A DNA stretch of 57,893 nt, counting the filler, from Dugesia japonica (lineage: Eukaryota): assembly GCA_001938525.1 (NCBI GenBank). It is 4 parts of 4 records of this genome, joined end to end, with 100 filler letters (N's around TTAATTAATTAA, not from the genome) between each part and the next. Parts side by side here need not be neighbours in the genome. Positions count along the whole stretch, not along the records: positions 28,956 to 38,606 come from MQRL01554591.1; 3 more parts are not named here. One strand, 5' to 3'. Below the pieces are notes generated by a model. The model had not been told where the DNA came from. It searched no databases and was given only the letters and a program-made list of their open reading frames with translations. Below are positions 13,321 to 54,800 of the stretch, in pieces (the stretch's first letter is position 1; every line of letters begins with the position of its first letter). The translations under genes and the position numbers were made by a program.

Positions 13321-16300
13321 TATAACAAAAATATTAATCAGGAAAGTTTGAAATTGTTCAACTGTGACCCTTTCATCATTGTTATAGCAGTCAACATATG
13401 TTTGATGGTTGATGGTGCTATTTTTTAATTTGACGCCTTTTGCTTTCATTGTTTCTTTCTCAGAAAGCAAGCTGTAACATTTTGGACGTAAGAATATCCA
13501 TTCAAAATACTTCTTCCATTTATTCTCGTCTTTAAACTTATCAATGACAGAATTCAACTTATTACTATAGAGAGGATGCTCTTTACTATAGTTTGAAGTA
13601 TATAATAATTCAACTTTCTTTATAAATCCGGTAAGTCTTTCTAAACTTATATCCACCAAATCTAGAAAAAAGCTGTCAATATCGCCAGCTACAATATTAA
13701 TACTACATTTTTCTTCTTTTCTGTACTTTACAAGCTCGATGTACTGCAGCTGGTACATTCGTAATTTGCTCAAGTCAAGTACAGATTGACCAATGTAGCT
13801 TGGACGATCTAAACATACTAACTCTTTATTCATTAAAACTGCTATCAGGTTTTCTGCAATCTTGATTGATTTCTGGAAGCTGAGTTTAGAGGCATATGTT
13901 ACCAGCTTTTTACTAGTATTGGATAAGCATCCATACAGAATGTTAATATCAATGTATAACAAATCTATGTTTTCACTAGTGGTGACATGATGTTTGTTAA
14001 TAAATGGCAATCCAGCCCTTATTCCACCTTCAAAAAAGGTGTACATATCGTTGTCCATCAACAATTTTATCGGTTTATTCAATGACATCAAGGCTGATGA
14101 CCAGATTATACCCGGTATGCCAAAGAAATTCAATGGCTCCAATTTGTTGTGTGAAATTTATTTGATTCTGAACTGTTGGAAGAAATCNNNNNNNNNNNNN
14201 NNNNNNNNNNNNNNNNAGACCATCATATAATCCAGAAGCGTCCTGCAATTTGTTAATCTCCAAATTTCTAATGCTTTTCATACTTAACATCTAATATTTC
14301 ATCCCATTTCAGTGGCATTTCTGTTGTTTCAACCAGAACTTGCAAACTGGTTGCATAATTATTTGGGAATATTCCCTTTGAAGTAGTTATTTGCCTATCT
14401 TTAAACTCATTTAAAGTTAACGGTGTGTTTTTTAAGGATTTTATGGCTGAATCCAGTGATGAGTTTATAAACTGATATGAATTTATAAACTTTATTGTTA
14501 AAAATTTAGTTTCATGCACTGTTAAGCATAGAAACTTTTCTTTTGTTGTTGGTTTGCATCTCAAGTCCCATTGTGAGAATTTACTTATTCCATATTTCAA
14601 GATATGATGCAAATCATACCCTCTTAAATTATGANNNNNNNNNNNNNNNNNNNNNNNNNNNNNNNNNNNNNNNNNNNNNNNNNNAATTTACTTATTCCAT
14701 ATTTCAAGATATGATGCAAATCATACCCTCTTAAATTATGAAATACAACAGGTAGTTGGCTTTTCACATGTCTGCTCAAATAACATTTAGAGCATGCTGC
14801 ACCCAAATACTGACCGGTAAAATGATCATGATCATGAACTGGTGTTAAATGTTTTCTTGCACAAATAACAAATTGTGGCTACAGAAAATGATTTTTCCTC
14901 TTCTTCATTTATCTTCATGGGCTTATTTCCATTTTTTGTGTAATATGGAGTCACTAAACTATGATTGATTTCTTTGATTTCCTTTAAAAAATCATATATG
15001 CAGTCATCTCCAAAGAACTGCTTATATATTGTTTCATTAGTAAAGTTATTTACTAATAGCATTCCTACTGAAATCGGCATATGTATTTGAAAATGTACAT
15101 TATCTGTGGGAAGAACTAATTCAAAATCAGCATATACTACGAATGGTGATGTCAGACATTTATAAAAATCCTTAAACTCTAAATCTTTCTCTGACGGCAT
15201 GGTATATAGAGTTGTACCGGTTTGGATTTTCTCGCAAATTATCGCATGCTTTTCAAAGGCTAATTTATGCCTAAATTCATTAAAAAAATTTGAACCCCAA
15301 TTTGATCTTATTCTTACACTTTCTCCTTTAGTATTCCAACTTAACAGTCTGTTCAGATCCATTACAGCCGGGTAATGGTACTTGTTGTCATTTTTGTAGC
15401 ATTAANNNNNNNNNNNNNNNNNCCGTTATCTACTCTAGACTTGTGAATGATATCTAAATTGGGATGTTTGTAAACCTCTTCATCATCATCTTCAACATCA
15501 CTTGAATTCCACAAAAGTACATTGATTGAAAGTCCTGGATTTTTTCTTTCGAATTTCCAAATAGCATTTATTATCTAACTTCATTGGCATGTCTGTTTCT
15601 TCAAACTTCAACTCTGACATATATTTTTCATATACAGATGTTCTATTTCTACATTTCCTATCAACTCGATATTTTTTGAGAATAGCTAAAATGCTGTAAA
15701 TAAAGCACTTATTATCTTCATTCTTAATATTAACTAGATTGACTGGCGGTGGTATGTAACTATGGCCAACAGTCTGTTGATATTTTCTATCTTTGTAATT
15801 TTCAGCTTTATTTCTGAAATCCTGCTCAGTATCCAGCTGGAACGGAGCTCACTCTTTATAGCAATTTTTTCATTCAATTGATTTATTTCATAATCAAAAA
15901 TGTTTTCGTTTAAAGGAATAGCTCGATTTGATTTGAAGCAAGCTTTTATCTCGTCATCCCTTATAAATTCAACGTCAATGCCAAATTGAATTTTTACTTC
16001 TTTCAACTCTTCTATTATCTTAAATAGTTGGACGATCAAATTTTCTGGTAGCAAAATTTGATTTGTGTTCAAACTTGATGTATTTATTTTAATTATTTGG
16101 TTGCAACGATATAAATCCTTTTCGATAACTACATCTTCATCAGAAACAACGAGATTTAATACACCACCAACTTGATTATTTTCTTCTGCATAAATGAATT
16201 CTTGTAGTAAAATATTATCATCTTCAACAACAGTATTTTTCGCACTATCAATAAGTTTCTGTTCTTCAGCATCCATACATGCTTGTAAAACTGTATCTTC

Positions 16301-16501
16301 CTCGTCTAACTCGTTTATGATCTCGAAATAATTACAATCAAATTCCAATAGCTGTGGTGGTTGAATGTCGTTATCTGATTCGTTCGAAAATTCCGGTTCA
16401 AACATAACGTCTCTTTCTTCATGAACTTTCATAGCATCCATTGCTGCCGGATCTTCATTATCTGAAACTATATATTCATCAACTGCTTTTTCTTTTTTCA
16501 C
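13285..16501 (-). pseudogene. polB: Protein-primed family B DNA polymerase of Polinton/adintovirus type (frameshifted, internally deleted)
   Basis: Motifs in the expected order: acidic N-terminus with QVGG; VNIKNEDNKCFIYSILA; PFVVYADFE (ExoI); CYLC...DHDHFTGQYLGAACSKC (endonuclease VII-like); FHNLRGYD (ExoII); SKGIFP; FFEGGIRAG; YIDINILYG (motif A); YIGQSVLDLSK; GDIDS (motif C); KFKDE; LRPKCYS; KAKGV. Confidence 0.92.
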
Positions 16502-21900: not shown

Positions 21901-24900
21901 ATTATTAAAGCCTATTGTATTCAATTTAGTTTGATTTCAAGATCCATTTACAACAAATTGTGGACAGCAATGCTTATTGTGGTTGAAATACCAGTATTTT
22001 TATATGAAATAAATGTTTTTAATCAACAAATTATGTTTTAAATTAATCTGTTGTTATTTACTGGTAATGTAACACCAATGCAGTTCATATGCAACTAACT
22101 TATTACGTTGCGGTATTTTAAATATTAAAATAATTAAAAATATTACGTTACAATATTTTTGAATTCATACACATAGTGATTCATAAAGTATTTATTATGT
22201 GTCAGCATACAACACACATTTGAATAAAAAGTAGTTACTTGTAAAATTATTAAACTTTTTCAATTTACAAATAAACGTGAGTTTTTATCAATAACTTTTA
22301 TTGCTTTTTAATTTTTTATTACATGATAATAATTAACAAAGACAATTACAACATTAATTCAACAATGAAAGCAGTCAGCAATGAAACGATATGAGGAATA
22401 ACAACGTAATGTACTAATATTTTATTTATAAATTTTATAATTATTTATAGAAGATGACTAAAAATGATGAAGTTATATAATTGAATTTTAATGAGAATAT
22501 GAGGATTATGACTAGAAATGACACTACTTTGATGCCTTTGAATTTTGCTAATATGGAGATAATGACTAGAAATAATGCTCAAATATCTTCCTTAGATATT
22601 TTGTGAGATAAACAAACCACGTTATTTTTTATTAATTTTAAATGCTTTGAATTTAATTTTTATGATTTATTTTCTTTTTATTAGTTTTTATGTATCATAT
22701 TTAGTTTTATAGATTTTTTATAAGTTTTTTTATAACTATATTTTTGATAATTGATAATGATATGTAAGTTGAATAATTTTAATAACTTTTGATAATAAAT
22801 GAGTAACTTCTAATAATAATGATATGAATACGTTTGATAATAATAATAATAACAATATTTTAAGATAATATTATAAATAATTTAATAATAACATAAATAA
22901 TAATAATAACTTTAATAATTTTTATGATAATTATAGTAATTATTATTTTTGATAAAAATGATAATAATTTTGATAAGAATCTTATATTCATAAAAAATAT
23001 AATAATAATGATATTTTTCAATATTAACACTTTTGATAAAAATATTTATAGCAACAATTTAAATTCGAAACTTTATTTTCAAACAATTATTTTCTCATAG
23101 CTCTTTTATTTCGATTAGTTGACTATCTGCTACTTAGATTGCTCTATTTTAAATATTACAGTCTTTCATGCTTATACATTATTTTCACCATCATTTGACT
23201 AGAGATTTCATCTATTTGTTACATGTGAAGTTTTGTAACATTTGCCAATTCTTCAACAACATGATCCCTTATTTGTTTTTGAATATTCTAAATAATAAAT
23301 TAGAATAAAAAGATTAATTAAATAAATAACTTACAATTTTAAAACTCTCGTAGAGATAATAAATTGTATTCAAATATGTGATGAAATTATGTAATGATGT
23401 CAGTAAAATTTCGTTGATTCATTTAAAGTTTTCTAAAGATTTATTTTTCTAAACTTACATAATAATTTGATTAAAATTATTAATTTCACAATAATATTTT
23501 GATAATAATGTTAATATTTTTGATAGTACAGTGATTAGACTTATTTTTATTTATATATTATATTTTATTTAACAATATGCTTCCATAAAAGAGAATGCCA
23601 TATGGTTATGGAGAAATATTATTCCAAAAAATTCTCTGGGACAAAGTACTACACATGGCCTACATGTAAAACACTAGATATAGGTACTTATGCATGTTTT
23701 TTTAAGGAGCATGCAGACCTCATTAAGCAATTTGAAACGACTAAAAAATGAGGGATATACTTTCAAAAACTGATATAGGTGCTACACTAACTAAGAGAGT
23801 AAGAAAAGAACCAATATTAATTGATGAACTGCAGGCTATGATAATAAAACCAAAGAAAATTAAACCAAGTCGGTGGATCATTAGATGAGCCCACAATTGA
23901 AATGGATTTGAATAGGTGTTATGAGATACTTAAGTTAAATGTATCTCATCATAATAGAAGGGAAATAGCATTACCATAAGTACTGATAGGGAAATTCATT
24001 TACTCGTACCAGTTCATTTATTCATCATTAGTTGCTGCCGTCAAGTCAATTAAAATCACTCCTGTGACATCAAAAATGTTTAATGATAATAGTATTATAA
24101 AGTCAAAAGGGGTTTTTACATATGATTTCGCCACAAGCTTATATTTCTTAATAGAAACAACATCAATGCCACCGAGATGGAACGAATTGAGTAAACAAGA
24201 ATATGTTAAAGCAGTTGAAATGTGTGAGATTACTAATTTTAAAACCTACTAGATTATATAATGGCTTATCTTAAGATCGGTGACTTTTTGTTGGCTGAGT
24301 TATTTCAACAACTTTTAGCAACGTCTATAGCGCACAATAAGCTGGAACCATTGAATGTTTACGGTATACCAGGCATGTCATGGGCATCTGCATTAATAAC
24401 TTTTAAAGAACTTATAGAATTATTAACGAATAACGACATGTATACATTATTTGAAGGAGGAATCAGAAGAGGGCTCACCTTTGGTAACAAACATTATGTC
24501 GCTAATGATGAAAACCAGGAGCTTCTATACATTGATATCAATAACTTGTATGGGTGAGCTTTAAGTCTAAAGTTGACATATAAAAAATTTGAGTGGATGC
24601 ATCCGGGATTGGATTTGAATTCACTATCTTATGGCTATACTATGGATATTTTTGTTTCGATTCATTTTTTGGGTTTGAATAAATAATTAACAAAAATGTT
24701 TATTTTCTACCAACAATTATTTAAGTAAATTAAGTTCTTTTAATACAGAAAAATTTTATTTTTTTCAAACATAAAAATTAAAATGTATTTTCCATGCGGT
24801 TAACAAGCATTTCCAGTATGTTACTCTTAATATTTTTATTGCCTCATAATATACTTCAAAATATGGAATATGTCGTGTAAATATTGTTTAACATCATAAA

Positions 24901-26460: not shown

Positions 26461-27438
26461 TGAGTTTGACGGTACATTTTAGATTTATTCTGATCTTATT
26501 TATATATTTTATTTGACGAATGATGATGTTTATTTTATATTTTAAACTTTTCTTGACACCATATATTATTTACATATTTTGCATCTATATGTGCATCTAT
26601 ATTTTGCACTTGATTTTAATAAAATTATTTTCATTTTAACTTTTATTTTTATTCAATTAAAACAATGAATAAAAACTACAAAATTTTGCTTATTATGCGT
26701 AAATAATTTCTTATTATTGGGTTTAAAAATCAATATATTTAATACTAAATTTGATTCGATCAGACAAACAGAAATATGTTTTTAAAAAGATTGGAAAAGT
26801 TTTTTAAAAAATACAAACTTTTTTAAACATTTATTTACCATTAAAACAAAAAACATTTTAACTATCTAAATCTGAATACCATATTTCTAGATTTCTTTAT
26901 CAGCGGGAAGGTGGATTGGTGGTATGTAAAGAAAGCATTTTTTGTAGTAGTCCTTTAGATAATGCATGGTATTTAATTCTAAGCTGTATAATGATGTATG
27001 CCTGAGAAAATTCTATACCAATTTTTACAAAAGTTTATGCTTTGGTATAGAAATTGCGCAGGAACGAAGAACTTACTAAGGTAGTTCTTTAAGTAAAGTA
27101 TATTCAATTCTTTATTGAATAGTTTCAAAATTGAAGCTGTATGACCACCTCCAGAAGGTCAAACTCTATTATAATTTTGGACTAATCAAAGTCGATACCA
27201 CCCGAGGTCAAAGTCCACACCAGCTAAAATTTATATACCACTGAAATTTCTATACTAGTTATCATAAGAACTAATCACATAAGACGCAATGACTTAAGAA
27301 ACAACTTGTAAATAATAAAATGCAATCGAATATGTTTAAAAAACTAGCATAAAGAGTGGAAAGAAACTGAGAATGATGAATGAAAAATGGATATTATTAT
27401 AAAAAATTCACTAGTATGCATGTGGTATTGAAATAAAA

Positions 27439-27740
27439 ATGAAATTAGAAAGAAGTATTTCGTTTATTACCGATTTGATTAAATCATCAAAATCTTCAAA
27501 AATGAAAATTTTGCAATTATTTCCACCGTATGTTATCGTTGATTTACTTGAGATTATCATAAATATTGATTTTGATAATGTAGATTTGAGCGCAGCCAAA
27601 GGAAAGCATTGAAAAAACATAAAAGAACATTATTAATGCTTATGTTAGGAAATTGATAAGGAATAATCCAGGAGATGACTTTTGAGCATCCTTACTACCA
27701 ATTGCATTAGCTGCATTAGGCTTGACTCATTTCAAATAAA
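27439..27740 (+). pseudogene. Polinton small basic/amphipathic protein remnant
   Basis: MKLERSISFITDLIKSSKSSKMKILQLFPPYVIVDLLEIIINIDFDNVDLSAA/KALKKHKRTLLML...PGDDF*ASLLPIALAALG fits the recurrent Polinton pattern E..lN...gNv.l....k..L.k.K..L..l...GG.Fl..Ll. Confidence 0.55.
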
Positions 27741-28955
27741 CAATAGGTGGCTTTTTAGCAAATAGTTAAATAGTGACGCACTGGATCAGCTCCCCCATGA
27801 TTAGATAATGTAGATCCTAATGTATTTAGTTGGGAATTTAAAAATGACATCATATTAGGTAATATTACGCAAGTGATCTATGATTTTCATGTGTAAAATA
27901 TTTTTCATGGGATTTTTTTTATGAAAATTCGAGTGAACCACCCAATTTGTTTAAATAATATGAAAATTAATAAATTTTTTAAATCAATTTTTTATTGAAA
28001 TCTGGAACATCCCAAATTTCGAAAATTTTTTTTATTTTTTTAAATATCACTTGAATGAGAAAGAATCATTTCTAGCTAGAAAAAGTTTTAATCTCAAATT
28101 TAATTATAAACTAATCTATTCAATAGAGAACTTTCCACTGATCATTACTGATTTAATCAAAATTCGCCAAAATTTGAAACTTTTATTCTCAAATCGTAAC
28201 GTAACATACATTATTCGATAGAAAATTATTCANNNNNNNNNNNNNNNNNNNNNNNNNNNNNNNNNNNNNNNNNNNNNNNNNNNNNNNNNNNNNNNNNNNN
28301 NNNNNNNNNNNAAGATGCTTAATAAACACAAATAAAACATTATTTCTTACAATGTTCATCCAAATTTAATGATTCAAGTACTACTTTGCAGAAGTTTACG
28401 CTGATCAAGAATATATACAGTTAAACTTGTCAAATAAAATTATTTTTAAAAAAGTTTAAATTTTGTAATTCTTAATAATTAATGTTAAAAAAATTATCTC
28501 AAATTTTATAATTAAAGTATATATTCGATATGGAATTTGACGATGATTAACAATATCATCAACTAAAATCGTCAAATCATATACATAAAAAGTTATATTG
28601 AAAAACAAATACATATGTTTTGTAGTTTACTCTGAAGAATATTAACATTAATTTTCATAAAATAATAAAAGTTAAAAACAAAAATACTTTCAAACTAATA
28701 TTTATTTCAATAAATCTGATTGCTTATCTGTTTCGTTTGGTTGTATCTTCTTTACAAGCATGGTTTTAAGAACATCATAACAGCAATAGTAACAATCACA
28801 TCTGTTATCTATAGATATTCTTCCATATCTAAATTGGCAAGATTACTCACATTCTNNNNNNNNNNNNNNNNNNNNNNNNNNNNNNNNNNNNNNNNNNNNT
28901 TAATTAATTAANNNNNNNNNNNNNNNNNNNNNNNNNNNNNNNNNNNNNNNNNNNN

Positions 28956-29228
28956 AACGGTTATGTACGACCAATTTTATTCTTATAATCATTGGATGAG
29001 AGAAGTACTGAGCAAGTAGAGAAGGATCGTTAACGAACATTAATCAATAGCAAGACGCGATATTGCAAAGTCGCGCTGGACCTAGGAAAGTGAGTACAGA
29101 GGTACCATAAATGCTTGTAATTTTTAGGTATGCCCTTAGATTATTAATTTATTTATTAAATGTAAACGCGAGTAAATGAAAGAGAGTTAAAATAAATTGT
29201 CAACATCAAAAATCCTAAAAACCCAACA
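28956..29228 (+). mobile_element. 3' end of a copy of the TGTTGGG...CCCAACA element
   Basis: Inverted homology to 29631-29910. Ends aaaatcctaaaaacccaaca and runs into (AAT)n. Confidence 0.7.
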
Positions 29229-29439
29229 ATAATAATAATAATAANNNNNNNNNNNNNNNNNNNNNNNNNNNNNNNNNNNNNNNNNNNNNNNNNNNNNNNN
29301 NNNNNNNNNNNNNNNNNNNNNNNNNNNNNNNNNNNNNNNNNNNNNNNNNNNNNNNNNNNNNNNNNNNNNNNNNNNNNNNNNNNNNNNNNNNNNNNNNNNN
29401 NNNNNNNNNNNNNNNNNNNNNNNNNNNNNNNNNNNNNNN

Positions 29440-29489
<50 letters not shown>

Positions 29490-29630
29490 TAATAATAATA
29501 ATAATATTATTATATTATATTATTTATGTTAATATAATTTGTATTATTAATATTAATAGTAGGTAGATAGTAGCCATGACCTAACCCCTTCTTTCTCCGC
29601 GGAGAGAAGTAACAATTGAGGGTATATATG

Positions 29631-32555
29631 TGTTGGGTTTTTAGGATTTTGAATAATCTAATATCTGCACTTTCCATAATCGAGTATGGTGATAAATAAA
29701 TCTGCTTTATCTCGTCTATGGGCATACCTAAAAACCACAAGAGTTTGAGTCGCCTCTGTGACATGCCCCACCTTTTTTCAGGTTCAGCGCAACTTTGTGG
29801 TATCGCGTCTTAGCATTTGTCTCCTTGAATTCAAACTAACGTCTCCATCGTCTGCTCAGTATTTGTTTCCCATAACTCATACCACATAAAAATGGTCATA
29901 CATAACCACTAATCAATACAACAAAAAATCATGTGACACTAAAACTATATATTCATCACATTATACTAATTATCCAAACCTTTGCTTCCTCTAAAGGCTC
30001 CCGATACAGCAACCACAATGATCGTAAATTGTTGAACGTCGTTGCTTCACGATCCGCATAAACCTTTATTATGTCGGCCATTAACCAGTTGGCGTGTTAT
30101 AGAGCCAGTTCTTTCTCTTTGAGTTCCAGATATTTATTTTGATGTTTAGTAGCCTGACTCTTTAGCTGCAGTAGCTCATTCTGGAGTACTCGGCCAGATA
30201 GTACAAATAATAATTAATCCAAGATTGCCTCTGCAACCTGCATGACATACATATCCCTTTAATTTCCGCTACTAAAACTCAAACAAACAAATCAACAAAA
30301 CAGCTCTCATTTGACAACTCTACACATTTTATTTATCGTTTATAACAGGGNNNTTCATGACAGAACCGCTCAGGCCCATCACATCCCGAATAATCGATAT
30401 CTCTTCTTCTTCAGCTTGCGATTCCATGATATCCTTCTCGTTTTTATCACTCTCTATAGCCGCTTCAGGCAACTGACTATCTTCATTGATGCCTTCCGAA
30501 TCGGTCTATTCGAGAACCGCCATCAATCGATCTCGTTGCGAAGTGAGCAAAGTATTATTGGCTTCGAGAATGGCGACACGCAAATTGGTCACCTCGAGAT
30601 CTGCCCTCAACTCATTTGTTTTTTCTTTACGGCCTATTTTCTCATCTTGTATCATTTTCTGGACCTCCGCTCATTTGATATAGTAATATCCGTTGGTATC
30701 GATATACGGCCATATATATCGTGGTCGTTTCAAATTCAATCTGCTTTTCATCATCTAGTAAATTACGATCATGTTTATCAATTCTCATTATATACGATAA
30801 TTTCAACATAACGAATAAAATAAAATCAAATCAAATTTTTTAAATACCCAATGATTTTTTCACGATTTCTTTGGCCGGCGGCCTATCATTATTTCCACCG
30901 TTTCATAACGCGAACCAGAGAAGATTCCCGCTGGAAACAGGTATCTTTCCTCGTTCCCGTTATCGTCAAACTCAGTTAGGCGTTCCCTAATCATTACGAA
31001 ATAGTTGCACTTAATTTCTTTTCAAACCAAATTTTATTTCATTTCGAATATTGATTTAATGTCTTAATAGAATGTTTAAACGAATTTATAACTCCATTAC
31101 TCAACATATTGGTTCAAAACTTTGGTAATTTCCTAAATGGGTTTGAAGTTTCATTTTTATAAGAAAAATTAGCATNNNNNNNNNNNNNNNNNNNNNNNNN
31201 NNNNNNNNNNNNNNNNNNNNNNNNNGTATGATCGTACAAAATAAATAATAATAAATAAATCAATGAGAATAATGAACAACTATTTTAATTATTTATTGTA
31301 TGTTCGCACGACTTTTGACCAAAAAATTTTAAATCACTCAAAACATAACAAATCAAACAGTGATCCTATCGGAGAATCAGAAAAAAGTTTTCTAAAAAAT
31401 TGGTACTCGTTGAAATTTGACAAAANNNNNNNNNNNNACAACTACAATTCTCGACTTCACTTTCACCTTTCTATTCACGAACGCTACTCGGCGAATTCCT
31501 CTGAATTCCCGTAATTTCTCGGTTCATAATTTTTAAGCCCCGTTTTGAAATTTTCCTCGTCATTAAATTCTTATTTCATGTTCACTCAGAAGAACTCTAG
31601 AGATGGAACTCGGACATGATGATTTTAATTTCCAAATTAAAAAAATGATGATTTTAATTTAAAATAATAAAATAAAATCAATAAATTTTTACTCTGTTGA
31701 AGCTGTCTGAATAATATGCAGGATCAAATAAAATTTTCTGTAAGCTTCTGTTAAAATAGACTTTTTTGTAAGTTAAAAATTTCAAAAATTGGCATAAACT
31801 TTTTTAAGTAAAAATCTTTTCTGTTCTCTTTTTTGTTTTTTTCCTCCATGTAGCCTTGTTTCATTGACTCCATAGACATCATGATTGGAGATCCTTCATT
31901 GCCCGCGCAATCGTCGATTTGTATTTCAGAATCTCGTCCTCTCATTGGTTCGTGGGGTCAGATTTTCTCGAATCTCGGAAATGATCGCACCAGAACTTTG
32001 CTTGCCTGCATGCGCGATTGATTGACAACGACTTTGGAAAAACCAAATTCGTGTCGTCAGGCGGATGCACAAGTTTATACTGTCTGATTTTCCAACTTAT
32101 TCATCGTTTGGAAAATCAGAATTATCATTTCAAAATTGGTGACTGGACACCTTAATTAACAATATTAAACGCTTGATTAGCGTTATTTTAACAATAATGG
32201 GTTGTAGAGGCCCTTTTAATATATTATTATAGTAGTATATTTTATTTTTATTATCCAGCCTATTATTTCCTACTCGTACATCCAAATTTCATTGTCGTAT
32301 CTCCAAATTTGGGTNNNNNNNNNNNNNNNNNNNNNNNNNNNNNNNNNNNNNNNNNNNNNNNNNNNNNNNNNNNNNNNNNNNNNNNNNNNNNTAATAATAA
32401 TAATAATAATTATGTAAAAATAATAATTTAGTGTAAAATATCTGGCCCCGCATCCCTTTTTACTCGTTTTTCTGCTTGTTCTCTGATAATTTTCGTATTA
32501 TTTGGGGATGCTTTGTTATCTATTTTGCACTAAAATTATGTGTTCTAGCCCAACA
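29631..32555 (-). mobile_element. 2.9-kb element with TGTTGGG/CCCAACA termini and TATG target duplication, carrying a decayed coiled-coil gene (solo LTR or non-autonomous DNA transposon)
   Basis: 7-bp terminal inverted repeat, with TATG at 29627-29630 and 32556-32559. Homologous at both ends to 39049-40544(+). Coding-like minus-strand blocks at ~30350-30700 and 29980-30195. Confidence 0.8.
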
Positions 32556-32649
32556 TATGTATATATATTTTCGTGATGGAAAATAATTTCTTCTTTTAAT
32601 GGTTAAATAAAATTTAAAANNNNNNNNAATAAATCTTTAAAAAACAGGT

Positions 32650-33300
32650 AGCATTTTTTCTGAAAGATAAAGTTTTGATAACAAAAACTAAGGAAGAAAC
32701 GAAAATAACACAGCCACCTGACATAGTTGAGTTATTATTTATAGATGTGTATGGAGCATTGCAGGAGACACGAGGTTGAAAAGATATGTTTTCGGTAAAA
32801 TAGATCTATGCAGTAAGTATATAGCTTTGATAGCAAATGCAAGACAATATGAAGACACCATAAAAAAGCAATAATAGAGAAGTGAATATTAAAATTCAGG
32901 TGTCCGAGAGAAACTAGTGTTGATTGTAGAATAACATTTGATTCTAAACTAATGAAAGACTTTGCAGCTTAACATGGAATTATCCTCAGATTTTTGAGTC
33001 CATATTATCATAACACAAATAAACAAATTGAGAGACAGTTTTAAACAATGCGATCTATGAGAAATGCGACATTTAAAGACAGGACTTCCTCAGACTGGGC
33101 GGATGTATTGGCAAAGAGATAATTTACTTTGAATAGTGATGAGGTTTTTTAGAAAGTTCAAACAAGAAACAAGAACCAAGTTCGATATGAAGGACTCTAT
33201 AAGATCAAAGGAAAGGTTCACAACAGACATTACATCCTAGAAGATACAAACGGAAAACGTCTTGAGAGAAACATAAAAAAGAAGAAGTCGTTCAATGTTA
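32650..33300 (+). pseudogene. Gypsy-type integrase core remnant
   Basis: ELLFIDVYGAL..RYVFGKIDLCSKY..ILKFRCPRETSVDC..F.SKLMKDFA..HGI...LSPYYHNTNKQIERQF (D-D-E core) plus a C-terminal RYEGLYKI (GPY-like). Confidence 0.85.
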
Positions 33301-33350
33301 CATCATCTCCGGAAACTAGACGTCTTATATATATATATATATATATATAC

Positions 33351-36300
33351 CTGAGTTCAGGTATCTTTTTATATCTTCATACATCCATCCCGAAACATTC
33401 CACGAGTTAAAATCTTCTTCAGAGGGTTCATATGAAATCATAGCATTGATCATCGAAGTTCCTCCCAATAGTTTTCCTCCAATCAAAATCATTTGCTAAA
33501 ACAAATTTAACTAAATACAATTATTACTTAGAGTTGTTTGAAGGTTTAAATATTGAAAGTCATATTTTTCGTTTATAAGTTGAAAAATAATAAAATTTTG
33601 ATAATTATTTCGTTTTTTGCTATTTGAAATTAAAAATGCAACTTCTACCTCAATATAGTGTATAATTGAACGTTGAGACAGAAGTTATCGGATCTCTAGA
33701 GTTTATTAACTGTTTAGAAAACTTCCCTGAATTAAAAGTTTAATACAGTTAGTATGTTAGCGACAAAACGAATCCATTGTATCAATCATTCGTGTATGGA
33801 AGAAAATCAAAAGGGGATCTTTGCATAAATTGTGGAAATATATTTCGTAAATAATTTGACTTTTATTATTTTAAGATAATATTAATTGTATAACCAAACG
33901 TTTTGAGATTTTAGCTTTAACTTTCTCGAGAATTAAAAAATAAGTGTATTTAAAATAGTTTGAATATTTGATTTTATATATGCATTGATATATGCATTAA
34001 GGTGTAAACAACATCTGAAAGTGAACACACACACACACACACAAAATTTCTGTTATATTTTTTTTGAATCACTTTCTATCTTTTTTTTAATATTTTCGAT
34101 TTTTTAAATTACTTCTTTAGATTTATCCAAACTATTGACATCATGTAATTTCAGTTCTTTCTTTGTATCATTATTTTCCAACGCATCATTCATAATAGAA
34201 ATTATCAATACTAATGAGCAGGTAACATAGAATGCTATCAGTTAAAATCTCAAAGAAATTAATTTTTCTCTTTTTTAAATGAATTCAAATTTCAAATCCT
34301 TAGCTATATTTTTCTTCAAGTTTTCTTCAAAATTGTTTCTAATCATGTTTCAGTAAATCTGAATTGTTTCTGAATCAAAAAGCGTTTTGATAAAAAAATT
34401 CTCATTTCTTCTGATATTTGCGATAATTCAAATAATCTTCGTTTCTTTCAAAAATGCATCAACATATCCTACTACTTGAAACTTGTTCAGAAGCTTAATA
34501 ATTTTTTAACAGTTTGGCGTGTTCTCCATATTAAGTACAAGTAAGAATAATTAAGAGCTTATATTTAAAAATGTGTATTATTTAAGAATAATATCTTTTT
34601 TTCAGTTAGATCAGGTATAGCAATTACTTAATTGACCCTATTTGACATCATATAATCAAACATATAGGTTTTTTCAGACATACATGCCAACATACAATTA
34701 CGTAATATTAAATATTTAATTACAATTAAATTAATTAATCTCATCTCACACAAACTACGCTGAATTATTTTTGTACGCTACTTAATTTGATTTAACGTTA
34801 TAAGAAATAGCTCAAGACATACGAAATTTTAAAATTTTTTATAGTATATTTAAATTAATAATTGACAACCATTTTTTTAAATATTTATTTGCGATCAATT
34901 TTGACGGAATAACCGTCATCGTCAGGCAATTAAAGAATATTAAAACAAACTATTTACAAAGTTTAAATGATTTGATAATTTCAATTGTGCAATCCCAATA
35001 AAAAAANNNNNNNNNNNNNNNNNNNNNNNNNNNNNNNNNNNNNNNNNNNNNNNNNNNNNNNNNNNNNNNNNNNNNNNNNNNNNNNNNNNNNNNNNNNNNN
35101 NNNNNNNNNNNNNNNNNAAATCAGAACACCCTATTGATTTTCTACATTTTCTCCGATGCTCAACAATATTACTATTACCACTATTTCGACTTTGCTCTTG
35201 AACTCTGATGCAGAGATGACTAGAAGTCTCTCTAATGTATGTGGCGTTACACCCATTGCATTTAATTTGATAGACCAGATCAGAGCACAAGCCTAAAGGT
35301 GTTACAGATTTATTATTGAACATATTTATAACCTTATGAGATTGAGATACAACTTTTATATTTAAAATATTCTTAAGCACATTTTCAATCGAAAGTTTGA
35401 ATTTTTAAAGACTTCAGAATAAGGTAAAGATAACACAATTTTATGATCTGTTTCTACAACCTCAGATACATCAAAACGACAAGTCACTATTAAATTTATT
35501 CAAAGTTTCATAAACTAATTTGTCCGTAAACAATTTAGAAGACGCATTATTATGAAGTAAGTCAATTAATTTTTTTGATAAAAGTAGAAGAGAGAGACCA
35601 AGAACTATGAATTAGTTCTTTAATCATATAGTTTTATATTTTATGTCACAAAAACTGGCAGGATTTGTAAACAAACCGGTATCAGTTTTCTTTNNNNNNN
35701 NNNNNNTTTCAAATGAAGTATTCTTTCTTTCAATAAGCAAATCAAGAAATGAAACAGTTGAATTGATCTCTTCTTCAACTGTAAAGCCTATATTTGGATG
35801 GAAGTTATTCATATACTCAAAAAACAAATTTCCTCAAATGTCGATTTTAAAAGTATTAATTAAAATGATAATTGAAAATTATAATTAAAACTACTTAGTA
35901 TTTTATTTTTGACATTTCTTCAAATGTCCAATTTTGAAATTATGGATTAAACTTATAATTGAAAATTAAAATTTGAATTATTGAGTATATATTAAAATAT
36001 ATTATAAAAGATTTTAAATATTAAATATTAAATTAGATATTTTTTAAATATATATGAAAATATATTTTATGTATTTACAAATATTTCAATATCTTGAAGC
36101 CTTGATTATATTTTTTAACATTCTTTCATTAAAATATTAATGAGAGTTAATTTGTTTGAATATTCTGACTATTAATCTTTTTAACTTCCAACGAAAACCG
36201 TAACAATTTATGATTAAATATTTGTGGAGACTTGCGATATTGTAGACCCAACTAATAACCATATTGATTTTTTTCAATTTCGTTAAATCAAACTCGGATG

Positions 36301-37088
36301 AAAACAGAAAACAGATAAAAAAATTTTTACGATAATTATTAAAGAAATTTTTTTTAACTTCAAGTTTATTTAATATTAATCTTATCTTAAACAAAAATTT
36401 CTAAATTGCAACCCAAATTGAAATTTGATTTTATTTAATAATGATGTTTCTATAATTCTCACAATTCTCTTCATAATTCTATTTCTACTTGAATTATTTT
36501 TAATCGTCACGCAAGAATGAATTTCCCATCTAACTTCAAGGTTGACTTCATTTATGGCTAGTTGATTATTGGTCAATGATTTTTTTTAATGGTACATTTA
36601 TATTCAATAAATCTTAATCACTTGTGCTTGTCAAATCAACTTGAAATTCAAGTATAAATAAATTTAACTAACAAAACTACTGACAAATAAACATATTTAC
36701 TTGATTTTTCATAAATTTACTGCTATTATTTTGAACAGTTGTTTTATATTTCCATAGAATTGATGAATCATGATTAATTAATATTGGAACCAATATTGGA
36801 ATATTGCTCAAAATTTCAGTAACAAAATCAGGTTTTGAACCTGCTTCTAACAGAAGCACTTTGTTTTTCGTTTCAACAAGTCGTGAAGCTAAAATATTTC
36901 CGGCTGTTCCAGCTCCAACTAATTCCAATTAATTTGTTTTAATTCACAACGAAAATAATTAACAAACTAATTATATAATCGAATTCCATATTTGATAATT
37001 CAATTAAATTTTTTTTGATTGATTGTAATTTTTTATAAATGAAAATTGCAAATAGTAAATTGATAAAACTTAAAATATAATAACGCAT
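33351..37088 (-). CDS. GMC (glucose-methanol-choline) oxidoreductase, first three exons; 3' part not found
   Basis: Exons 37088-36968, 36918-36701 and 33495-33351 splice GT..AG in frame. They give a hydrophobic N-terminus, FDYIIIGAGTAGNILASRL..KVLLLEAG (FAD binding), WKYKTTVQ and GKLLGGTSMINAM..DFNSW..GW.YED. Confidence 0.88.
34890..35830 (-). mobile_element. Penelope-like retroelement 3' remnant in GMC intron 2
   Basis: MNNFHPNIGFTVEEE..VSFLDL..KKTDTG (RT C-terminus) and VYQIKCNGCNATYIRET..RVQE (GIY-YIG). The 3' end has ctgacga-t-gacgg-ttatt-ccgtc-aaaa, a hammerhead-like motif. Confidence 0.88.
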
Positions 37089-37549
37089 GACTTTCAAAAT
37101 AAAAATTGTTATTGTGATGAAAATAAACAAAAAAAATATTTTTATGTGAAATATAATCTTCTAAAGTCTGTGAATCTATTATTCGTGAAAAAAAATATTT
37201 TCGCCCATATCAATGGTTATTATATATTTATACTCATTCAGATTTTTCATCATAAAAAACCAATCAAATAAAACCCTAATTATTTTTTTTTAGAAATAAT
37301 TAAATCAATATTTATTAAATATTGCCAAGTATTTATTTAAATAAATATTGCAATATATATATATATAAATAATCTAAGCAAACAAAAGTGATTTATTTAT
37401 TTTTAAATAAAATTAAAATTTAAAAAAAATTTAAAATTTCAGATTCTTTTATAATACATTTAAATTTCATGATTAAATATTTTAAAACTTCTTTTTTCAA
37501 AGATTTAATTTGTTTGAATCATATGATGGATGATGTTAAAGTTCAAATT

Positions 37550-37780
37550 AAAATTCAGAGAGCAAAAAAGAGTTTTGATAGGTTTCCTAAACCATTTTTG
37601 AACAAATGTCTGAGTCTCTAAGTCCATAAAGTGCTTTCCCGGCTTCTTTTAATTTTGGTTCTTACATTTACTATGATACTGGTACGAGAGGTAAAATTTA
37701 CTCATTCGAGCTTGTATAAGATCGTACTATACATTTAGTGTACTCTACGATTGCATCCGTTCTCATAGGAGTTTAAAATA
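37550..37780 (+). mobile_element. Possible RTE-like non-LTR retrotransposon relic
   Basis: IQRAKKSFDRFPKPFLNKCLSL*VHKVL..LLILVL resembles the post-RT segment of RTE elements; heavily decayed. Confidence 0.35.
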
Positions 37781-38883
37781 AGAGGCAAAATGTTTATTAT
37801 TACCTCATTTAAAAAACCATTGATAATATTCTCATACGTCCTTATGGTAATTAAACACTTTGAAACCCTAAAATCTTTATTATAAATCCGTATGATTACA
37901 TTATTCAAAATTATGTAATTTTTATATAAGAATTTCTATTTATGAATAAGTTTATTAAATTTGTTGTTGATTCAGTTTTGTGTTTCAGCCAATTTTAAAA
38001 TATAAGTCTGAAATGACTAAATCATAATATTACTTAATAATAACTTAAGTAGATACAAAAGCATAAACGATGGAATCCATGTGACACCTGTCGAATTGTA
38101 ACATGTAAATATTTAAAAACAATATATATTATACCAGAAAACACAAGTTATTAACTCATGATACAAAATTATTACAGTTAAGAAATATTTATTGAGATTG
38201 AAACATATGTTTAATAGTGGTAAGTGAGCCAGGCATTGATATATAACACATCAATAGTTTTCACTGGATCGGGATAGACCGACAGAAGAGCGTGGATTAT
38301 TATAGAATTTTTTTCGACTAGGATGAACTATTAGCCTATCTTTTGACTCGCAATTTTTTTTCACAATTCCTGTGGTGCTTTCGATATATTGATCCTTTTT
38401 AATGTATCCATATTAAATTGACGCTCGTTTACACTCGTCAATTTTTTTTTGTTGGAGAGATTACACTTCAACCACCCACTTCAATTACGGCTTCTGTCTT
38501 CACAATATATTTTTGGTTCTTCATATTAGTAATATTTTCTAAAAATTGATAATTCCGAAATATTAAATCTTAAATAGGAACAATTGTAAGTTTATTGTCC
38601 TACTATNNNNNNNNNNNNNNNNNNNNNNNNNNNNNNNNNNNNNNNNNNNNTTAATTAATTAANNNNNNNNNNNNNNNNNNNNNNNNNNNNNNNNNNNNNN
38701 NNNNNNAAAAACATTTCAACGATTAAGTTATATTTGTTATTCATTTATTTGTATTTTCTAATAAATGTTTTTATTATTCTAGTATCGTTTTTTGTTTGAA
38801 CATTGTATTTTGCTTATTTTCTATTTATTACTACTATTATTTTCACGAACGAATTGGCTGGGTTTTGTCCCAACAACAACAAC

Positions 38884-38932
<49 letters not shown>

Positions 38933-38982
38933 NNNNNNNNNNNNNNNNNNNNNNNNNNNNNNNNNNNNNNNNNNNNNNNNNN

Positions 38983-39048
<66 letters not shown>

Positions 39049-39050
<2 letters not shown>

Positions 39051-40544
39051 GTGGGTTAGAACGCCTAATTTAAGTTAAAAAGGCAATATAGAGTCTCTCG
39101 AAATAATATAAAAATCAGCATGAAAACGATCAGGAAAATAATAAAAATTAGTACTGGGCCAGAAATTGGACTATCTATTATCATTACTATTACATAATTA
39201 TTATTATTATAATTATTATGCAATATTTATAGAAATCGAGGAAAATGAAAATTGGGCGTAGAGAACACAAATTTGGAGGTATAGAATTGAATCTGGAATG
39301 TACAAGCAGGAAAAATAAGTTAAATAATAAAAATTATGTAAGATACTATAATAATATATTAGAAGGGTCTCTACAACCCATTATCTTTATTATACTAACG
39401 CTAATTAGCGTTTGGTATTAATATTTCATCAATTAATCTGGCGCAGTCTCCAAAATCGAACTATATTTCTGGTTTACCAAATGATGATTCAGTTGAAAAA
39501 CCAGACAATAAAATAAAGGACATTCACATAACGACATGAATTTGGAAAATCCAAATTCGCTGTCAATCAAGTTGTACAGAACACTCGAGATATAGCAGAT
39601 GAATAGTAAGACAAGACTTGCGGGGTATGTACAGAGTTTGTTTACGTAATACATCGACAAAAAACTTGAACAACCTATCAGATTGGGAAATTTTTAAATA
39701 TCGAATTAAGATTGGTCCACCAATAACAGATGAAAATTTAAAGTTAAATATGGTCTTATTATTTTGTGTTTGATATACTAAGGCAACCTTAAATAAAATA
39801 CTAATAAAGATTGTATTTCATAGTCATGAAGAACCTTGATGCNTTTTTATTAATTTTGTTTTTGTGAATTTTATAATATCTATTGATTGAAATTATTAAA
39901 TTTACTAATGGACCATAGTTGTAATATAAATGAATTCTATTAGTAGTTGCGATTGTCATTATCATCTTATAATGTTAATTATCCATTGTATCAATTAGGA
40001 AAGATGAGAAATGAGGTGCTCCGTTTGAAGGCGCAATTACTCAAGCAAACAGCTGCTTACCAGCAACTTAAGAAGAAGGAGCTGGTGCTACAACAGGCCA
40101 ACCTTCATATGGCCGAAGTAGTAAAGACATAAGCTTATCGGGAGCTTACCCTGTTTGCAATGCTTTGAACAGTGTGACTCCATTATCGCACAAGAGAAGA
40201 AAATGCTCCGATCAGAATAATACAGTGGATTTAAACGAATAGTTTCATAACAATAAATAAATTTTAGGCTTCTGTATGTAACTAAATTTGAAAACGTTTT
40301 GGTAGTTGTCTGAGTTTTTTTAATCAGGAGTAAAATTAAATAAATACTGTGCAATTGAAAATGAGTATTATTTGGGTTCGTAAAACTTGTGGAATGAGGG
40401 GCATGTCACAGAGATGACACAAATGCTTATGGTTTTTAGGTATGACCCTAGTTGATAAATGTGTTTGTTTTGTGTGATATTGAGAGACTTGAGAGAGGAA
40501 AGAAAAATAAATTTCTTAAATATCAAAAAAACTAAAACCCAATA
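39049..40544 (+). mobile_element. Shorter (1.5-kb) diverged copy of the TGTTGGG...CCCAACA element inside (AAT)n
   Basis: Starts TGGTGGGTTAGAAC and ends AAAACCCAATA. Matches the reverse complement of 31960-32555 and 29631-30200. Confidence 0.78.
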
Positions 40545-40599
40545 ATAATAATAATAATAACAATTATTATATGCAAAAAAAACGATGGCAAATGTTTAA

Positions 40600-41360
40600 T
40601 AAAAAATAAGTAACGCCATTTAAAATAGCACTTTATTGTTGTATATTTCGACGGATCAACCGTCATCATCAGACAAAAATGAAAAAAATGAGTTTATTCA
40701 GTCTGTATTATTCAAATGGATATAAGACGGCTATAATTCTTAATTTTTTTAAAAATAATTGCAAAATTTTTAAATTTTTTACCAATTTTTCAATAAGAAA
40801 TTAATTTATTCAATAATATTTTATTACTGTTACCTGTAAAATCAAAGATGTTTTTCCAAAATATTTAAATTTTTTAATTTTAGATNNNNNNNNNNNNNNN
40901 NNNNNNNNNNNNNNNNNNNNNNNNNNNNNNNNNNNTTAATTTTAGATTATATTAAAATTTTTTCAAAACCTATGAAAATTGAAATTTATTTCAAAAAATA
41001 AGATACAAACCTATCAAAAATTTGAAAATAAATTAAGATTTCAAAAGAATATGGAAAAATTATTTTATATTCAAAATATTTAAAATTTTTTTAGTTAATT
41101 TAGTCGAATGAGCTGCCTGTAAAATCTGATGTCTCTACTTCGTATAAGATAATGAGCAATTTAAGAATTACTAGGAGAGAGTGGTGTATGAAGCGTTAAT
41201 GATTAAATTTCATAATCCAAGCATTAATCTACAGGCTGGGCACTTAAAAATTAAGAATTATAGCCGTCTTATATCCATTATAATCGTATTAATCTTTGAA
41301 TAATACAGACTGAATAAACTCATTTTTTTCATTTTTGTCTGATGATGACGGTTGATCCGT
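40600..41360. mobile_element. Penelope-like 3' end with inverted pseudo-LTR
   Basis: 40651-40745 and 41246-41360 are near-perfect inverted repeats carrying ctgatga-t-gacgg-ttgat-ccgtc-gaaa. EALMIKFHNPSINLQ at ~41190-41235(+) is a PLE C-terminus. Confidence 0.8.
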
Positions 41361-41896: not shown

Positions 41897-49936
<8,040 letters not shown>

Positions 49937-51869: not shown

Positions 51870-54800
51870 TGTTAGGCGAGTTTGGAAAACTCCTCAAATC
51901 TTTAACATCGGAAATCAACTCCATAAATTTATTAAAATAAAACATATAACATCATTATTTGGTAAATCAAAGAAATGGTATCTTTATCTTGTTTTGTCAT
52001 TGTTATCAAAGCTACATACTTACTGCATTGGTCTATTATACCAAGAACATATTTTTTCAATCTCTTGTCTCCGGTAGGGCTCCACATAAATTTATAAATA
52101 ACAGTTCAAACATTTTGTCTGGCTGCGTCGTATTTGTTTCTTCCTTCGTTTTTGTTGTTTAGCTTTCTGGCATGTTATACAGCTTTGGACACCCTCTTGC
52201 TCCACAAATGTTTCGCGTTATAATTATGCTTCATATACGTTGATACTTTTTCTGCTTCAGCATGACACAAAAGATGGCGTATTTTCACTATAACCTCTTC
52301 TACTTTATCATCAGGTATCCATGTTCCTTCATCATTCATCAATGTTTCCTTGTTTTTCTTGAATATCTACTGTATTTAACATCTTTGTTTTACTTTTCAA
52401 CTTTTGAGATATTCAGGTGACATTAGACATTTTTCACATGTACCGCGTTTAGTCCTTGACAACATATCTACATTTGTATGAAGCGATCCTTTTCTATATT
52501 CTAATTTTATATTTAAACTGCTCAAATAATTAATTCAGGTTTGAAACTGTGATGTGGTCAGCTTCTTGGTATTTAGCAAAAAGGTGATGGCTTTATTGTC
52601 TGTTCTGAGGATAAATCTCTTCCCCTCTAAATAATGTTAGAAATGAAAACAAAAGTAATAAATTGCGACCAATTCTTTCCGCGTAGTAAAATATCTTTTC
52701 TCATGAATCGTCATTGCGTGTGGCCCATTTGCAATTACTCATTTTTGCCCATTGTTGTCCTTTTGAGATAGTACTGTCCCAATCGTATAGAAATTCATAT
52801 CTGTGTCCAAAGAAAATCCTCTATTTATATATGGAAAACATAATATTGGAGACATCATTAGTGCTTGTTTCATTCCACTAAAAACTTCTTCTAATTCCCT
52901 CGTCCATTCAATTTTCTTGTTACTTGGCCCAGTACACAGTTATTCCAGCAATCTAGCTTTTTTTGAATAATCATTAATAAACTTGTGATAGTAATTGCAA
53001 ATTCCTAAAAAGCTTCTCATTTTCTTAACGAATTTTGGTTTTACCAAAGTTCTTAATTACTTCTATTTTAGTTAGATCTGTTTTGACACCTTCTTTACTG
53101 ATAACGTGTCCCAAAAATCTTTTTTCGCATGACTTGACATTTCTCCGGTTTAACTCTTAGACCAGCTTTAATTTCTGTTATTACTTCATTGATTATTTCA
53201 TAGTTTTGTTCTTTTTTTCGGTAGATATGAGAATATCATCTAAATAAACCATCGCTCCTTTTATTTTTTTGATTACTTTATTCATCATTTCCTGGAACAT
53301 CTGTGGTACTGCTGCAATTCCAAAAGACATTTTATTTAAACAAAATTGCACTTGTTTGGTCGAAAAAGCTGTCTTTTCTTGAGAATCNTCACTNAGTTCC
53401 ACTTNGTAGTATGCATTTCATAAGTCTATTGAGNTAAAATACTNTGTATCTTACAAAGCCTCCAGCATTTTGTCCACATTTGGCATAGGAAAAACTTGTC
53501 TTTCTGTTATTGCATTGAGCTGTCTAAAGTCTAAGCATAATTGTATATCCTTTTTTTTCTTTTTCCAAACGCAGATTAATGCGTATTCTATTGAGAATTA
53601 CACTTCTGGGTGATGCCATTATCATATAGATTCTTGATGGCCTCTTCAATCTTCTCTTCTAGATTCATTGGTTGGTGATGCGCTTTTATGTTGATTGGAC
53701 CTCATTTAGTGATTATTCGATGCTTTATTAAGTGTGTACATTCAATGTCCCATTTTTCGCTATAAATACATCCTGATTTTCTGAATGATTGCAGTTAATC
53801 TACAATCTTTGTTAATTTCTAGAATCTCTATTGAATGTCTCAGTCGTTTATCCGTCTGTATCTGCCTTCTAAATTTTGACTCGATATTGCAAACAAATTT
53901 TTCTCGATGATTATTGATGTCTAACCTGCACGTTTTTTGAAGATGATACCTAAAGGTATTCTGAAATTCCACTACACCAATTAGATCTGGTATTAATTTC
54001 TCTACTATTATAAATGTTATTTCCTTGCATACCTCTTAAACTACAACTTCGATAGTTATCGTTCCAATTGTCTTTAATGAGATGTTATTGGCAAAATTCA
54101 ATCGTTCATCGCTTTTCTCTAACATTGTTTCTCCGAGTCTATTAAATTCTTTCATGCTCATCACATTTATTCTNGCTCCTGTATCTAACAAACAAGCAAA
54201 CTGTTCACCCTTGATCATCATTGAAATGCTAGGTCTCCCTTGCCTTTTATCATATGTAATTTCAACATTCTGTTTCTCTTCAATTATTCCTTTCACTTCT
54301 GCTTTGTTAACTTCCGCATCATTGAAACTTTCTCTTTTTAGTAATTTGTAAACTTTTTCTCTCATTTTACTTGTCTCATCCTATTTCTTGGCTTCTTGAA
54401 TATATTCAAACGTTAACTCGTTTAATGGATGGCTCCAAACAACTCTTTTACTGATGGATCCCTGCTTTTTGGCTATTCTCTTCTCGGATCTTCATTTTCT
54501 ATTATGCTGTCAGAAAATCTCTCTTCATTCTCATCATCAAATTCTTCTCAAATGGCATGAATTGGTTTGATCCGACTCCAATCTTTTGTTTGTTGTCCGC
54601 TTTTAGAATTGTATCTTCACCTAATTTAGGTTTACTAATGTTGAATTAACATTCTTCTGCTCTGTGACCTGGTCTTTTATATCTACCGCATACAATTTCT
54701 GTACACATTCTTCTGATATGACCAATCTTACTACACTCAAAACATTTTAGTGGTTTTTTATCTAGACAATTTCTACTTAAATGCCCTTATTTGTGACAAG

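Follow-up and report, generated by a model that had tools for sequence, protein, structure and literature searches.

A selected coiled-coil accessory gene inside TG..CA mobile repeats of Dugesia japonica, likely solo LTRs of a Gypsy-type family

We analysed a window of 57,893 nucleotides (filler included) from Dugesia japonica, joined from four parts of four records of assembly GCA_001938525.1. It has about 25% G+C, is gap-rich and contains many (AAT)n runs; the Schmidtea genome is more than 70% A/T according to the available text of PMC11410931. Near its centre lies a repeat element, here copy A, with the termini TGTTGGG and CCCAACA, which form an inverted repeat of 7 bp, in a TA-rich insertion site where TATG stands on either side. 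The initial annotation had described these ends together with the TATG duplication, and both were found again; the relatives that it placed at 39049-40544 and 28956-29228 align with A and are treated as copies B and C. The sense of copy A is taken as the strand of the coiled-coil gene that it carries. The features are as follows.

29631-32555, minus strand: copy A, whole element, 2925 bp including assembly gaps, placed by its ends and flanks
29627-29630, no strand: left TATG target duplication of A
32556-32559, no strand: right TATG target duplication of A
32018-32555, minus strand: 5' conserved block of A, 69-75% identical to B
32083-32120, minus strand: hairpin or palindrome h1, conserved in B at 39468-39505
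32024-32055, minus strand: hairpin or palindrome h2, conserved in B at 39533-39564
30903-30965, minus strand: long hairpin h3, high-copy across the family, absent from B
30356-30664, minus strand: second open stretch, found in A alone, 103 codons with one stop, coiled-coil-like and then acidic
29966-30186, minus strand: decayed coiled-coil gene of A, one in-frame stop, terminal tail frame-shifted
29714-29812, minus strand: 3' conserved non-coding core, common to A, B and C
39049-40544, plus strand: copy B, complete element of 1496 bp within an (AAT)n array
39992-40242, plus strand: decayed coiled-coil gene of B, three in-frame stops, terminal tail frame-shifted
28956-29228, plus strand: copy C, 3' end alone, truncated at an assembly gap, then (AAT)n
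38707-38875, minus strand: copy D, a possible 5' end from a more diverged relative, uncertain
51870-55563, minus strand: decayed Gypsy element used as in-window control, with protease, RT and RNase H by Pfam

Copy A is interrupted by three assembly gaps (31176-31225, 31426-31437 and 32315-32391). Copy B, in the opposite orientation, is a full relative with one mismatch per end (TGGTGGG/CCCAATA), and its ATAA duplication is uninformative because it sits within (AAT)n. The order of 5' block, gene, 3' core and end is the same in A and B. The 5' block of A is about 540 bp long, includes a brief (ATT)n stretch and, around 32190-32254, an AT-rich core, and aligns with B 39049-39570; the coding stretch is 63% identical over 133 nt and the 3' block 83% over 59 nt. 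The middles of the two copies are not alignable, and their lengths differ by 1.4 kb. Copy C, placed tail to tail with A, is 65% identical to it across 292 nt. Copy D and copy B lie head to head across (AAC)n(AAT)n. D holds the further CCCAACA end that had been reported at about 38875, and the likeness of this end (38869-38875) to the reversed 5' end of A is only marginal, its score being reached by 12 of 300 shuffles; for the 5' end of B, 124 of 300 shuffles reached the score. Arrays of (AAT)n or (AAC)n adjoin four of the six element ends and a TA-rich run adjoins two, which, in a scan of element ends that was designed around such repeat flanks, no more than suggests a target preference. Three spacers of 100 bases (11499-11598, 28856-28955 and 38607-38706), runs of N with a fixed 12-base insert that we read as an assembly artefact, lie in the window and truncate copies C and D.

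The coding stretches of A and B align on one ungapped diagonal, as had been described, over about 62 codons rather than the 70 first given, with a DNA identity of 55% and 28 identical residues. The differences are distributed 27/19/38 over the three codon positions (p=0.039), and pS is 0.75 and pN 0.37, giving a pN/pS of 0.50 that only 1 of 1000 column shuffles reached or undercut; neither the BLOSUM score nor the identity count was reached by any shuffle (0/1000 each). The Fisher test of the codon signal, on rounded counts, gave p 5e-5. The other five frames showed pN/pS values of 0.61-2.36, and one of six frames in a 108-bp non-coding control block gave 0.495, so that pN/pS alone is weaker proof than the homologues described below. 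Synonymous sites are saturated between the two copies while the protein is kept. Each of the four in-frame stops in A and B is one base from the sense codon in the other copy, and the stop of A is private to that copy, since 221 of 231 of the summed depth (9 contigs, one DNA run) differs there.

Does the protein exist in an intact form? A profile of both copies, searched against 1.84 billion proteins, returned six matches, of which four (P0004-P0007; 83-112 residues, E 6.5e-20 to 5.2e-5) are true stop-free homologues; the other two, P0008 and P0009, were dropped as repetitive unrelated proteins. All four homologues are nameless singletons on contigs of 508-1894 bp, and they need not come from an element or from a flatworm. 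Within the window, tblastn with P0004 found the gene of A at 53% over 75 aa (E 2.5e-18) and that of B at 47% over 75 aa (E 5.7e-17); the homologues match both copies and nothing else significant there. Members of the family are 27-49% identical, and the homologues have in common the core motif NRx(M/L)AD(I/V/M)(I/V)K(S/T)YADRE. Together with the pN/pS and the shuffles, these intact homologues bear out the earlier proposal of a protein-conserved gene under purifying selection.

The homologues also define the end of the gene. In the intact proteins a C-terminal (V/I)(D/E)LD tail stands 0-3 residues before the stop. In B it is found in a shifted frame as TVDLNE-stop (40222-40242), and in A, degraded and likewise frame-shifted, as GLDN-stop (29980-29966), where it overlaps the donor of a GT..AG intron proposed earlier at 29979-29909. 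This places the likely end of the gene at about 29966 and leaves the proposed intron unsupported, and no splice joint was seen in three RNA runs. Of what had been called an apparently spliced accessory gene, the mobile TG..CA unit and the once-selected gene are thus supported, and the splicing at the named intron is not.

The model of P0004 is a single helix spanning residues 16-105 (pLDDT 82). The homodimer prediction for residues 14-106 scored 0.51, against 0.00 for the best of three controls, and the dimer runs agreed in at least 97% of contacts at a pLDDT of 83-84. The predicted dimer is parallel and in register, with the invariant L61 and N65 at the interface. In microbes, 21 of 30 solved pairs and none of 23 single chains attain the mark for a dimer; in eukaryotes the corresponding figures are 17 of 29 pairs (7 of 16 among animals) and 0 of 30 single chains. 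A coiled coil that passes this mark may do so through its likeness to solved ones. The prediction supports binding, in that P0004 would form a coiled-coil dimer, and the protein as modelled is one helix of 80-90 residues that pairs in parallel and in register, the dimer bearing two short (V/I)(D/E)LD tails. We take this tail to resemble a SUMO-interacting motif. No transmembrane segment (maximum 19-residue hydropathy 0.2-0.9, highest 0.89) and no arginine-rich stretch (at most 3 R per 15 residues) was found in any of the six sequences.

Searches for named relatives returned little beyond generic coils. Pfam gave 0 families for three window proteins at E<=1 and only sub-threshold generic coil matches for the four intact homologues (best E 0.0096); among PDB sequences the best E was 0.21, again to generic coils, an Atlas search with P0004 found generic coiled-coil clusters only, and Foldseek against viral models yielded 0 matches. 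A named host homologue did not emerge from word-index searches, in which none of 113 and none of 8 candidates scored and which by their method are weak evidence. In metagenome and viral contigs, none of the 275 and none of the 196 pattern matches to related loci was confirmed, and the DNA pattern of the element had 0 matches in these collections. No relatives were found for the second open stretch of A, which was rejected as a paralogue of the main protein (profile comparison probability 0.1%). A further A-specific open stretch at 30863-31021 (minus strand), upstream of the main gene and overlapping hairpin h3, was likewise without relatives found.

Outside the gene, the family is marked by conserved non-coding blocks. 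The 3' core, 85-180 bp from the 3' end, is its highest-copy DNA block and holds the letters WFLGM, which the initial annotation had listed as a shared block about 90 bp from the terminus. That this block is shared holds; its differences are distributed 4/4/4 over the codon positions, without a codon pattern, and it is likely a non-coding cis block. The 3' core is likely the promoter/R-U5 region, and its folding is insignificant (z -0.9; 41 of 200 shuffles fold as well). An invariant motif in it, TTTTTAG-GTATG, at 29721-29734 (minus strand), 29121-29132 (plus) and 40433-40444 (plus), reads both as a splice acceptor and as a donor and might be the major splice site of the element. Hairpin h3 folds at -28.7 kcal/mol on the sense strand compared with -18.6 kcal/mol on the opposite strand, a level reached by 0 of 200 shuffles. 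The two hairpins of the 5' block fold equally on either strand and could be DNA binding sites; of their 23 pairs, one, in h1, changed on both sides between A and B in a compensatory manner and two on one side. The hairpin coordinates were picked after inspection, against a background of 0 of 222 windows at z<=-3 and <=-15 kcal/mol, and a separate coarse scan did not flag h3. Rfam gave 0 matches at gathering score over the window, with two chance matches (E 1.4 and 1.7) in 28900-40600, and a tRNA search found none.

How large is the family? In one run of DNA reads, 2407 contigs were placed on A with an identity of at least 80%; 224 of them reached 99% and 771 stayed below 90%. Summed contig depth, which is not equal to copy number, was 26,635-41,189 over the 3' core of A, 1,747-9,584 across the greater part of the 5' block and 283-541 across the coiled-coil gene; over hairpin h3 it was 12,084, compared with 428-575 in both adjoining bins. 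The terminal and cis blocks of A are hence one to two orders deeper than the gene, and individual listed contigs have depths of 5-91. These placements show a large, heterogeneous family in which the cis blocks are far more widely common than the gene sequence. No contig of this run spans copy A. A short form of about 210 bp, derived from a loose-end consensus, agreed at only 0.48 and was not relied on. RNA reads on the element numbered 28, 272 and 22 out of 10.5, 13.6 and 11.6 million records in the three runs. None of them was at 99% or more identity to A; they concentrated on the 3' core, with a depth over the gene of 0 in two runs and 0.3-1.7 in one. Neither a splice joint nor a pile-up of read starts or ends, as for a transcription start or poly(A), was seen in the three runs, and AATAAA is too frequent in the element to place a poly(A) site. 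The RNA counts show neither expression nor silence of intact copies.

To which class does the element belong? Its inverted repeat ends after 7 bp, and a longer one is no better than shuffles (200 of 300 for A, 134 of 300 for B). The initial annotation had left the choice between a solo LTR and a Ginger-type DNA transposon. In the available text of PMC2836005, Ginger1 has terminal inverted repeats (TIRs) of 40-270 bp and metazoan Ginger2 of 50-180 bp, the tabulated families span 44-297 bp, and Ginger2 combines TGTNR ends and a 4-bp duplication with the target preference RTATAY; GingerRoot, in the accessible part of PMC6839031, has 100-150-bp TIRs and a 6-bp duplication. Ginger1 thus differs from our element in TIR length and in its duplication (CCGG/CCGT versus TATG), while for Ginger2/Tdd TGTTG fits TGTNR and ATATGT matches RTATAY in 5 of 6 positions. 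Ginger1 and Ginger2/Tdd resemble it in TGTNR ends and 4-bp duplication and, as far as that text goes, depart from it in their 40-300-bp TIRs; they also encode an integrase-like transposase, which did not turn up in A or B among open frames of 52 codons or more. Membership in Ginger was rejected on the TIR length, and because Ginger fails here the solo LTR is now favoured of the two. A TRIM or LARD was also rejected, as there is no direct similarity between both ends of A or of B.

The TG..CA ends with a short inverted repeat, and the TATG around A, agree with a solo LTR; neither a PBS nor a purine tract was seen beside either end of the element, as expected for a solo LTR with a duplication. 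The decayed Gypsy element in the same window has 82-bp LTRs (TGTTAGG..ATAACA), a PBS-like TGG and a 4-bp ACAT duplication; with such similar ends and a duplication of the same length, a solo LTR is the simplest fit for the TG..CA element. Gypsy solo LTRs, including those of the planarian Burro/GYPSM1, show the same TG..CA ends, short inverted repeat, 4-bp duplication and thousands of copies. Within the window no pair of the repeats was found around gag-pol. An integrase-like fragment at 32680-33320 (plus strand), 125 bp from the end of A, was rejected as an internal region of A, lying outside its duplication and being 77% identical over 182 nt to the short-LTR Gypsy.

We regard the accessory gene in the TG..CA mobile unit as real, selected and unnamed, and the unit as likely a solo Gypsy LTR. 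On balance, the TG..CA repeats are probably solo LTRs of an old, diverse Gypsy-type family that carries an accessory gene inside its LTR, and the product of this gene is likely a small regulator of the element that acts as a dimer. In such a history an integrase would have inserted complete elements into AT-rich DNA, frequently runs of (AAT)n or (TA)n; recombination between the LTRs would then have removed gag-pol and left a single LTR. Purifying selection would have acted in the lineages that were active, and the solo copies, unable to replicate, would each have added stops and frameshifts of their own. U3 would comprise the variable 5' and middle portion that holds the gene, and the very high-copy block near the 3' end would be the promoter and R-U5.

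A rather unlikely, still substantial, alternative is a DNA transposon that is non-autonomous and has short TIRs, either Ginger2-like or of an undescribed integrase type. It would carry a promoter, the gene as cargo and subterminal binding sites and be moved in trans by the transposase of a partner, the dimer then being a second transposition protein. The TGTNR ends, the 4-bp duplication and the AT-rich target resembling RTATAY in 5 of 6 positions would suit it, as would conserved ends around a variable, unalignable middle, the strand symmetry of the h1 and h2 palindromes and a 3' core so much deeper than the rest, as though short derivatives exist. However, the TIR of only 7 bp compares with 40-300 bp in Ginger as given in the available text of PMC2836005, a scan of 113 stop-free frames of 52 codons or more, from 26000 to the window end, placed no transposase or integrase family inside the elements, h3 is strand-biased, and Gypsy LTRs in the same window have similar ends. 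We give little credence to a composite in which assembly gaps join nested fragments, or to a captured host gene fragment that is carried passively. The three N gaps in A, the middle that differs between A and B and the lack of a contig spanning A would be explained by it; against it stand the common block order in A and B, the single duplication around the whole of A and a protein kept in the face of saturated synonymous sites. A captured fragment is also opposed by the four true homologues, which are nameless, and, as weaker evidence, by the word-index searches that returned no named host homologue.

Within the LTR reading, and sharing its probability, lies a sub-case that we consider a long shot: the protein could act in the manner of Rev, Rex, Rem or CERV, binding the hairpins of the element and exporting its unspliced genomic RNA. 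Factors of the Rev/Rex/Rec/Rem type are defined by an arginine-rich RNA-binding motif, but here there are no more than 3 R per 15 residues. A small, helical and by prediction oligomeric protein next to conserved sense-strand hairpins would fit such a role; moreover, the MMTV RmRE overlaps the 3' LTR in the accessible text of PMC12789967, and Cer1 CERV has such an export role for a Gypsy element in that of PMC10309623. CERV, however, has 517 aa, and copy B carries the gene but lacks h3.

For the solo LTR that we favour, known systems offer partial parallels. In MMTV sag and HIV-1 nef, as proposed here, a coding frame lies inside U3 of the 3' LTR (available part of PMC12789967); these belong to vertebrate retroviruses, and Sag is a membrane protein, whereas the protein here is hydrophilic and without a Pfam family. 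Planarian Gypsy elements have accessory ORFs and unusual domains, SUMO-like and Smc-like among them, which in the accessible text of PMC6431247 are internal, whereas the present gene lies between the TG..CA ends. The Drosophila MDG1-group sORF1 and sORF2 are Gypsy accessory ORFs of about 70-110 aa under purifying selection, and sORF1 localises to the nucleus and is expressed from a short transcript; in the available portion of that source (10.1101/2025.03.14.642691) both lie upstream of gag, with sORF1 predicted as a helix-turn-helix and sORF2 as transmembrane, in contrast to the one predicted coiled coil without a transmembrane segment found here. Gypsy accessory proteins with leucine-zipper or SMC-like coils and nuclear roles are known as the aORFs of the plant elements Grande, Retand and PvRetro13 (PMC7264820), with which Cer1 CERV is grouped (PMC10309623), each as covered by the text at hand. 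In the parts of the cited literature that were accessible, Gypsy accessory genes elsewhere are internal, and genes wholly inside an LTR are described for vertebrate retroviruses. Our literature search found no description of this coiled-coil gene or of an ORF inside an invertebrate Gypsy LTR, with Repbase, subscription papers and supplements outside its scope; the repeat may have a catalogue entry already, as an LTR lacking the ORF, and supplementary repeat libraries could name the family.

What could such a protein do? Given the LTR reading, we tentatively speculate, at a confidence well short of even, that it is a nuclear adaptor or decoy whose tails would bind SUMO-marked host proteins and so ease silencing of the element. 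More doubtful still is the wider picture of an invertebrate Gypsy lineage, an old family, with an anti-silencing gene in its LTR, whose two-armed dimer would use SUMO-binding tails as a decoy against piRNA- and SUMO-guided repression. Were this true, any intact LTR, solo ones included, could supply the decoy. If the repeats are LTRs, thousands of copies scattered in the genome of a regenerating flatworm would be potential expression units for a regulator, beyond their role as promoters; if they are DNA elements, they would represent a short-TIR type with cargo, outside all the families tested here. Planarian stem cells rely on PIWI silencing of LTR elements, according to the accessible text of PMC8532177, and because of this dependence a regulator encoded by the element could be tested directly with RNAi.

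The rest of the window holds host genes and remnants of other elements. A host carboxylesterase gene with four exons seen lies at 44994-49936 (minus strand); the best named relatives of its exon 47243-47677 are from trematodes (40-54% identity), and one nameless protein is 61% identical. Exons of a host GMC oxidoreductase-like gene stand at 33328-33495 and 36680-36928 (minus strand), between the window positions of A and B. GIY-YIG-like fragments at 35157-35302 and 48739-48960 are 76% identical and probably Penelope-type remnants. Broken DNA polymerase B-like frames occupy 13285-16501 (minus strand), with a second piece at 23992-24556; they appear Polinton- or adintovirus-like by eye, with a sub-threshold Pfam match to DNA_pol_B_2 (E 0.0047). 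Adjoining this polymerase remnant, a tandem duplicate at 11599-13320 (about 885 bp, 95%, with repeats of about 31 bp) may have been duplicated in assembly or represent a terminal repeat.
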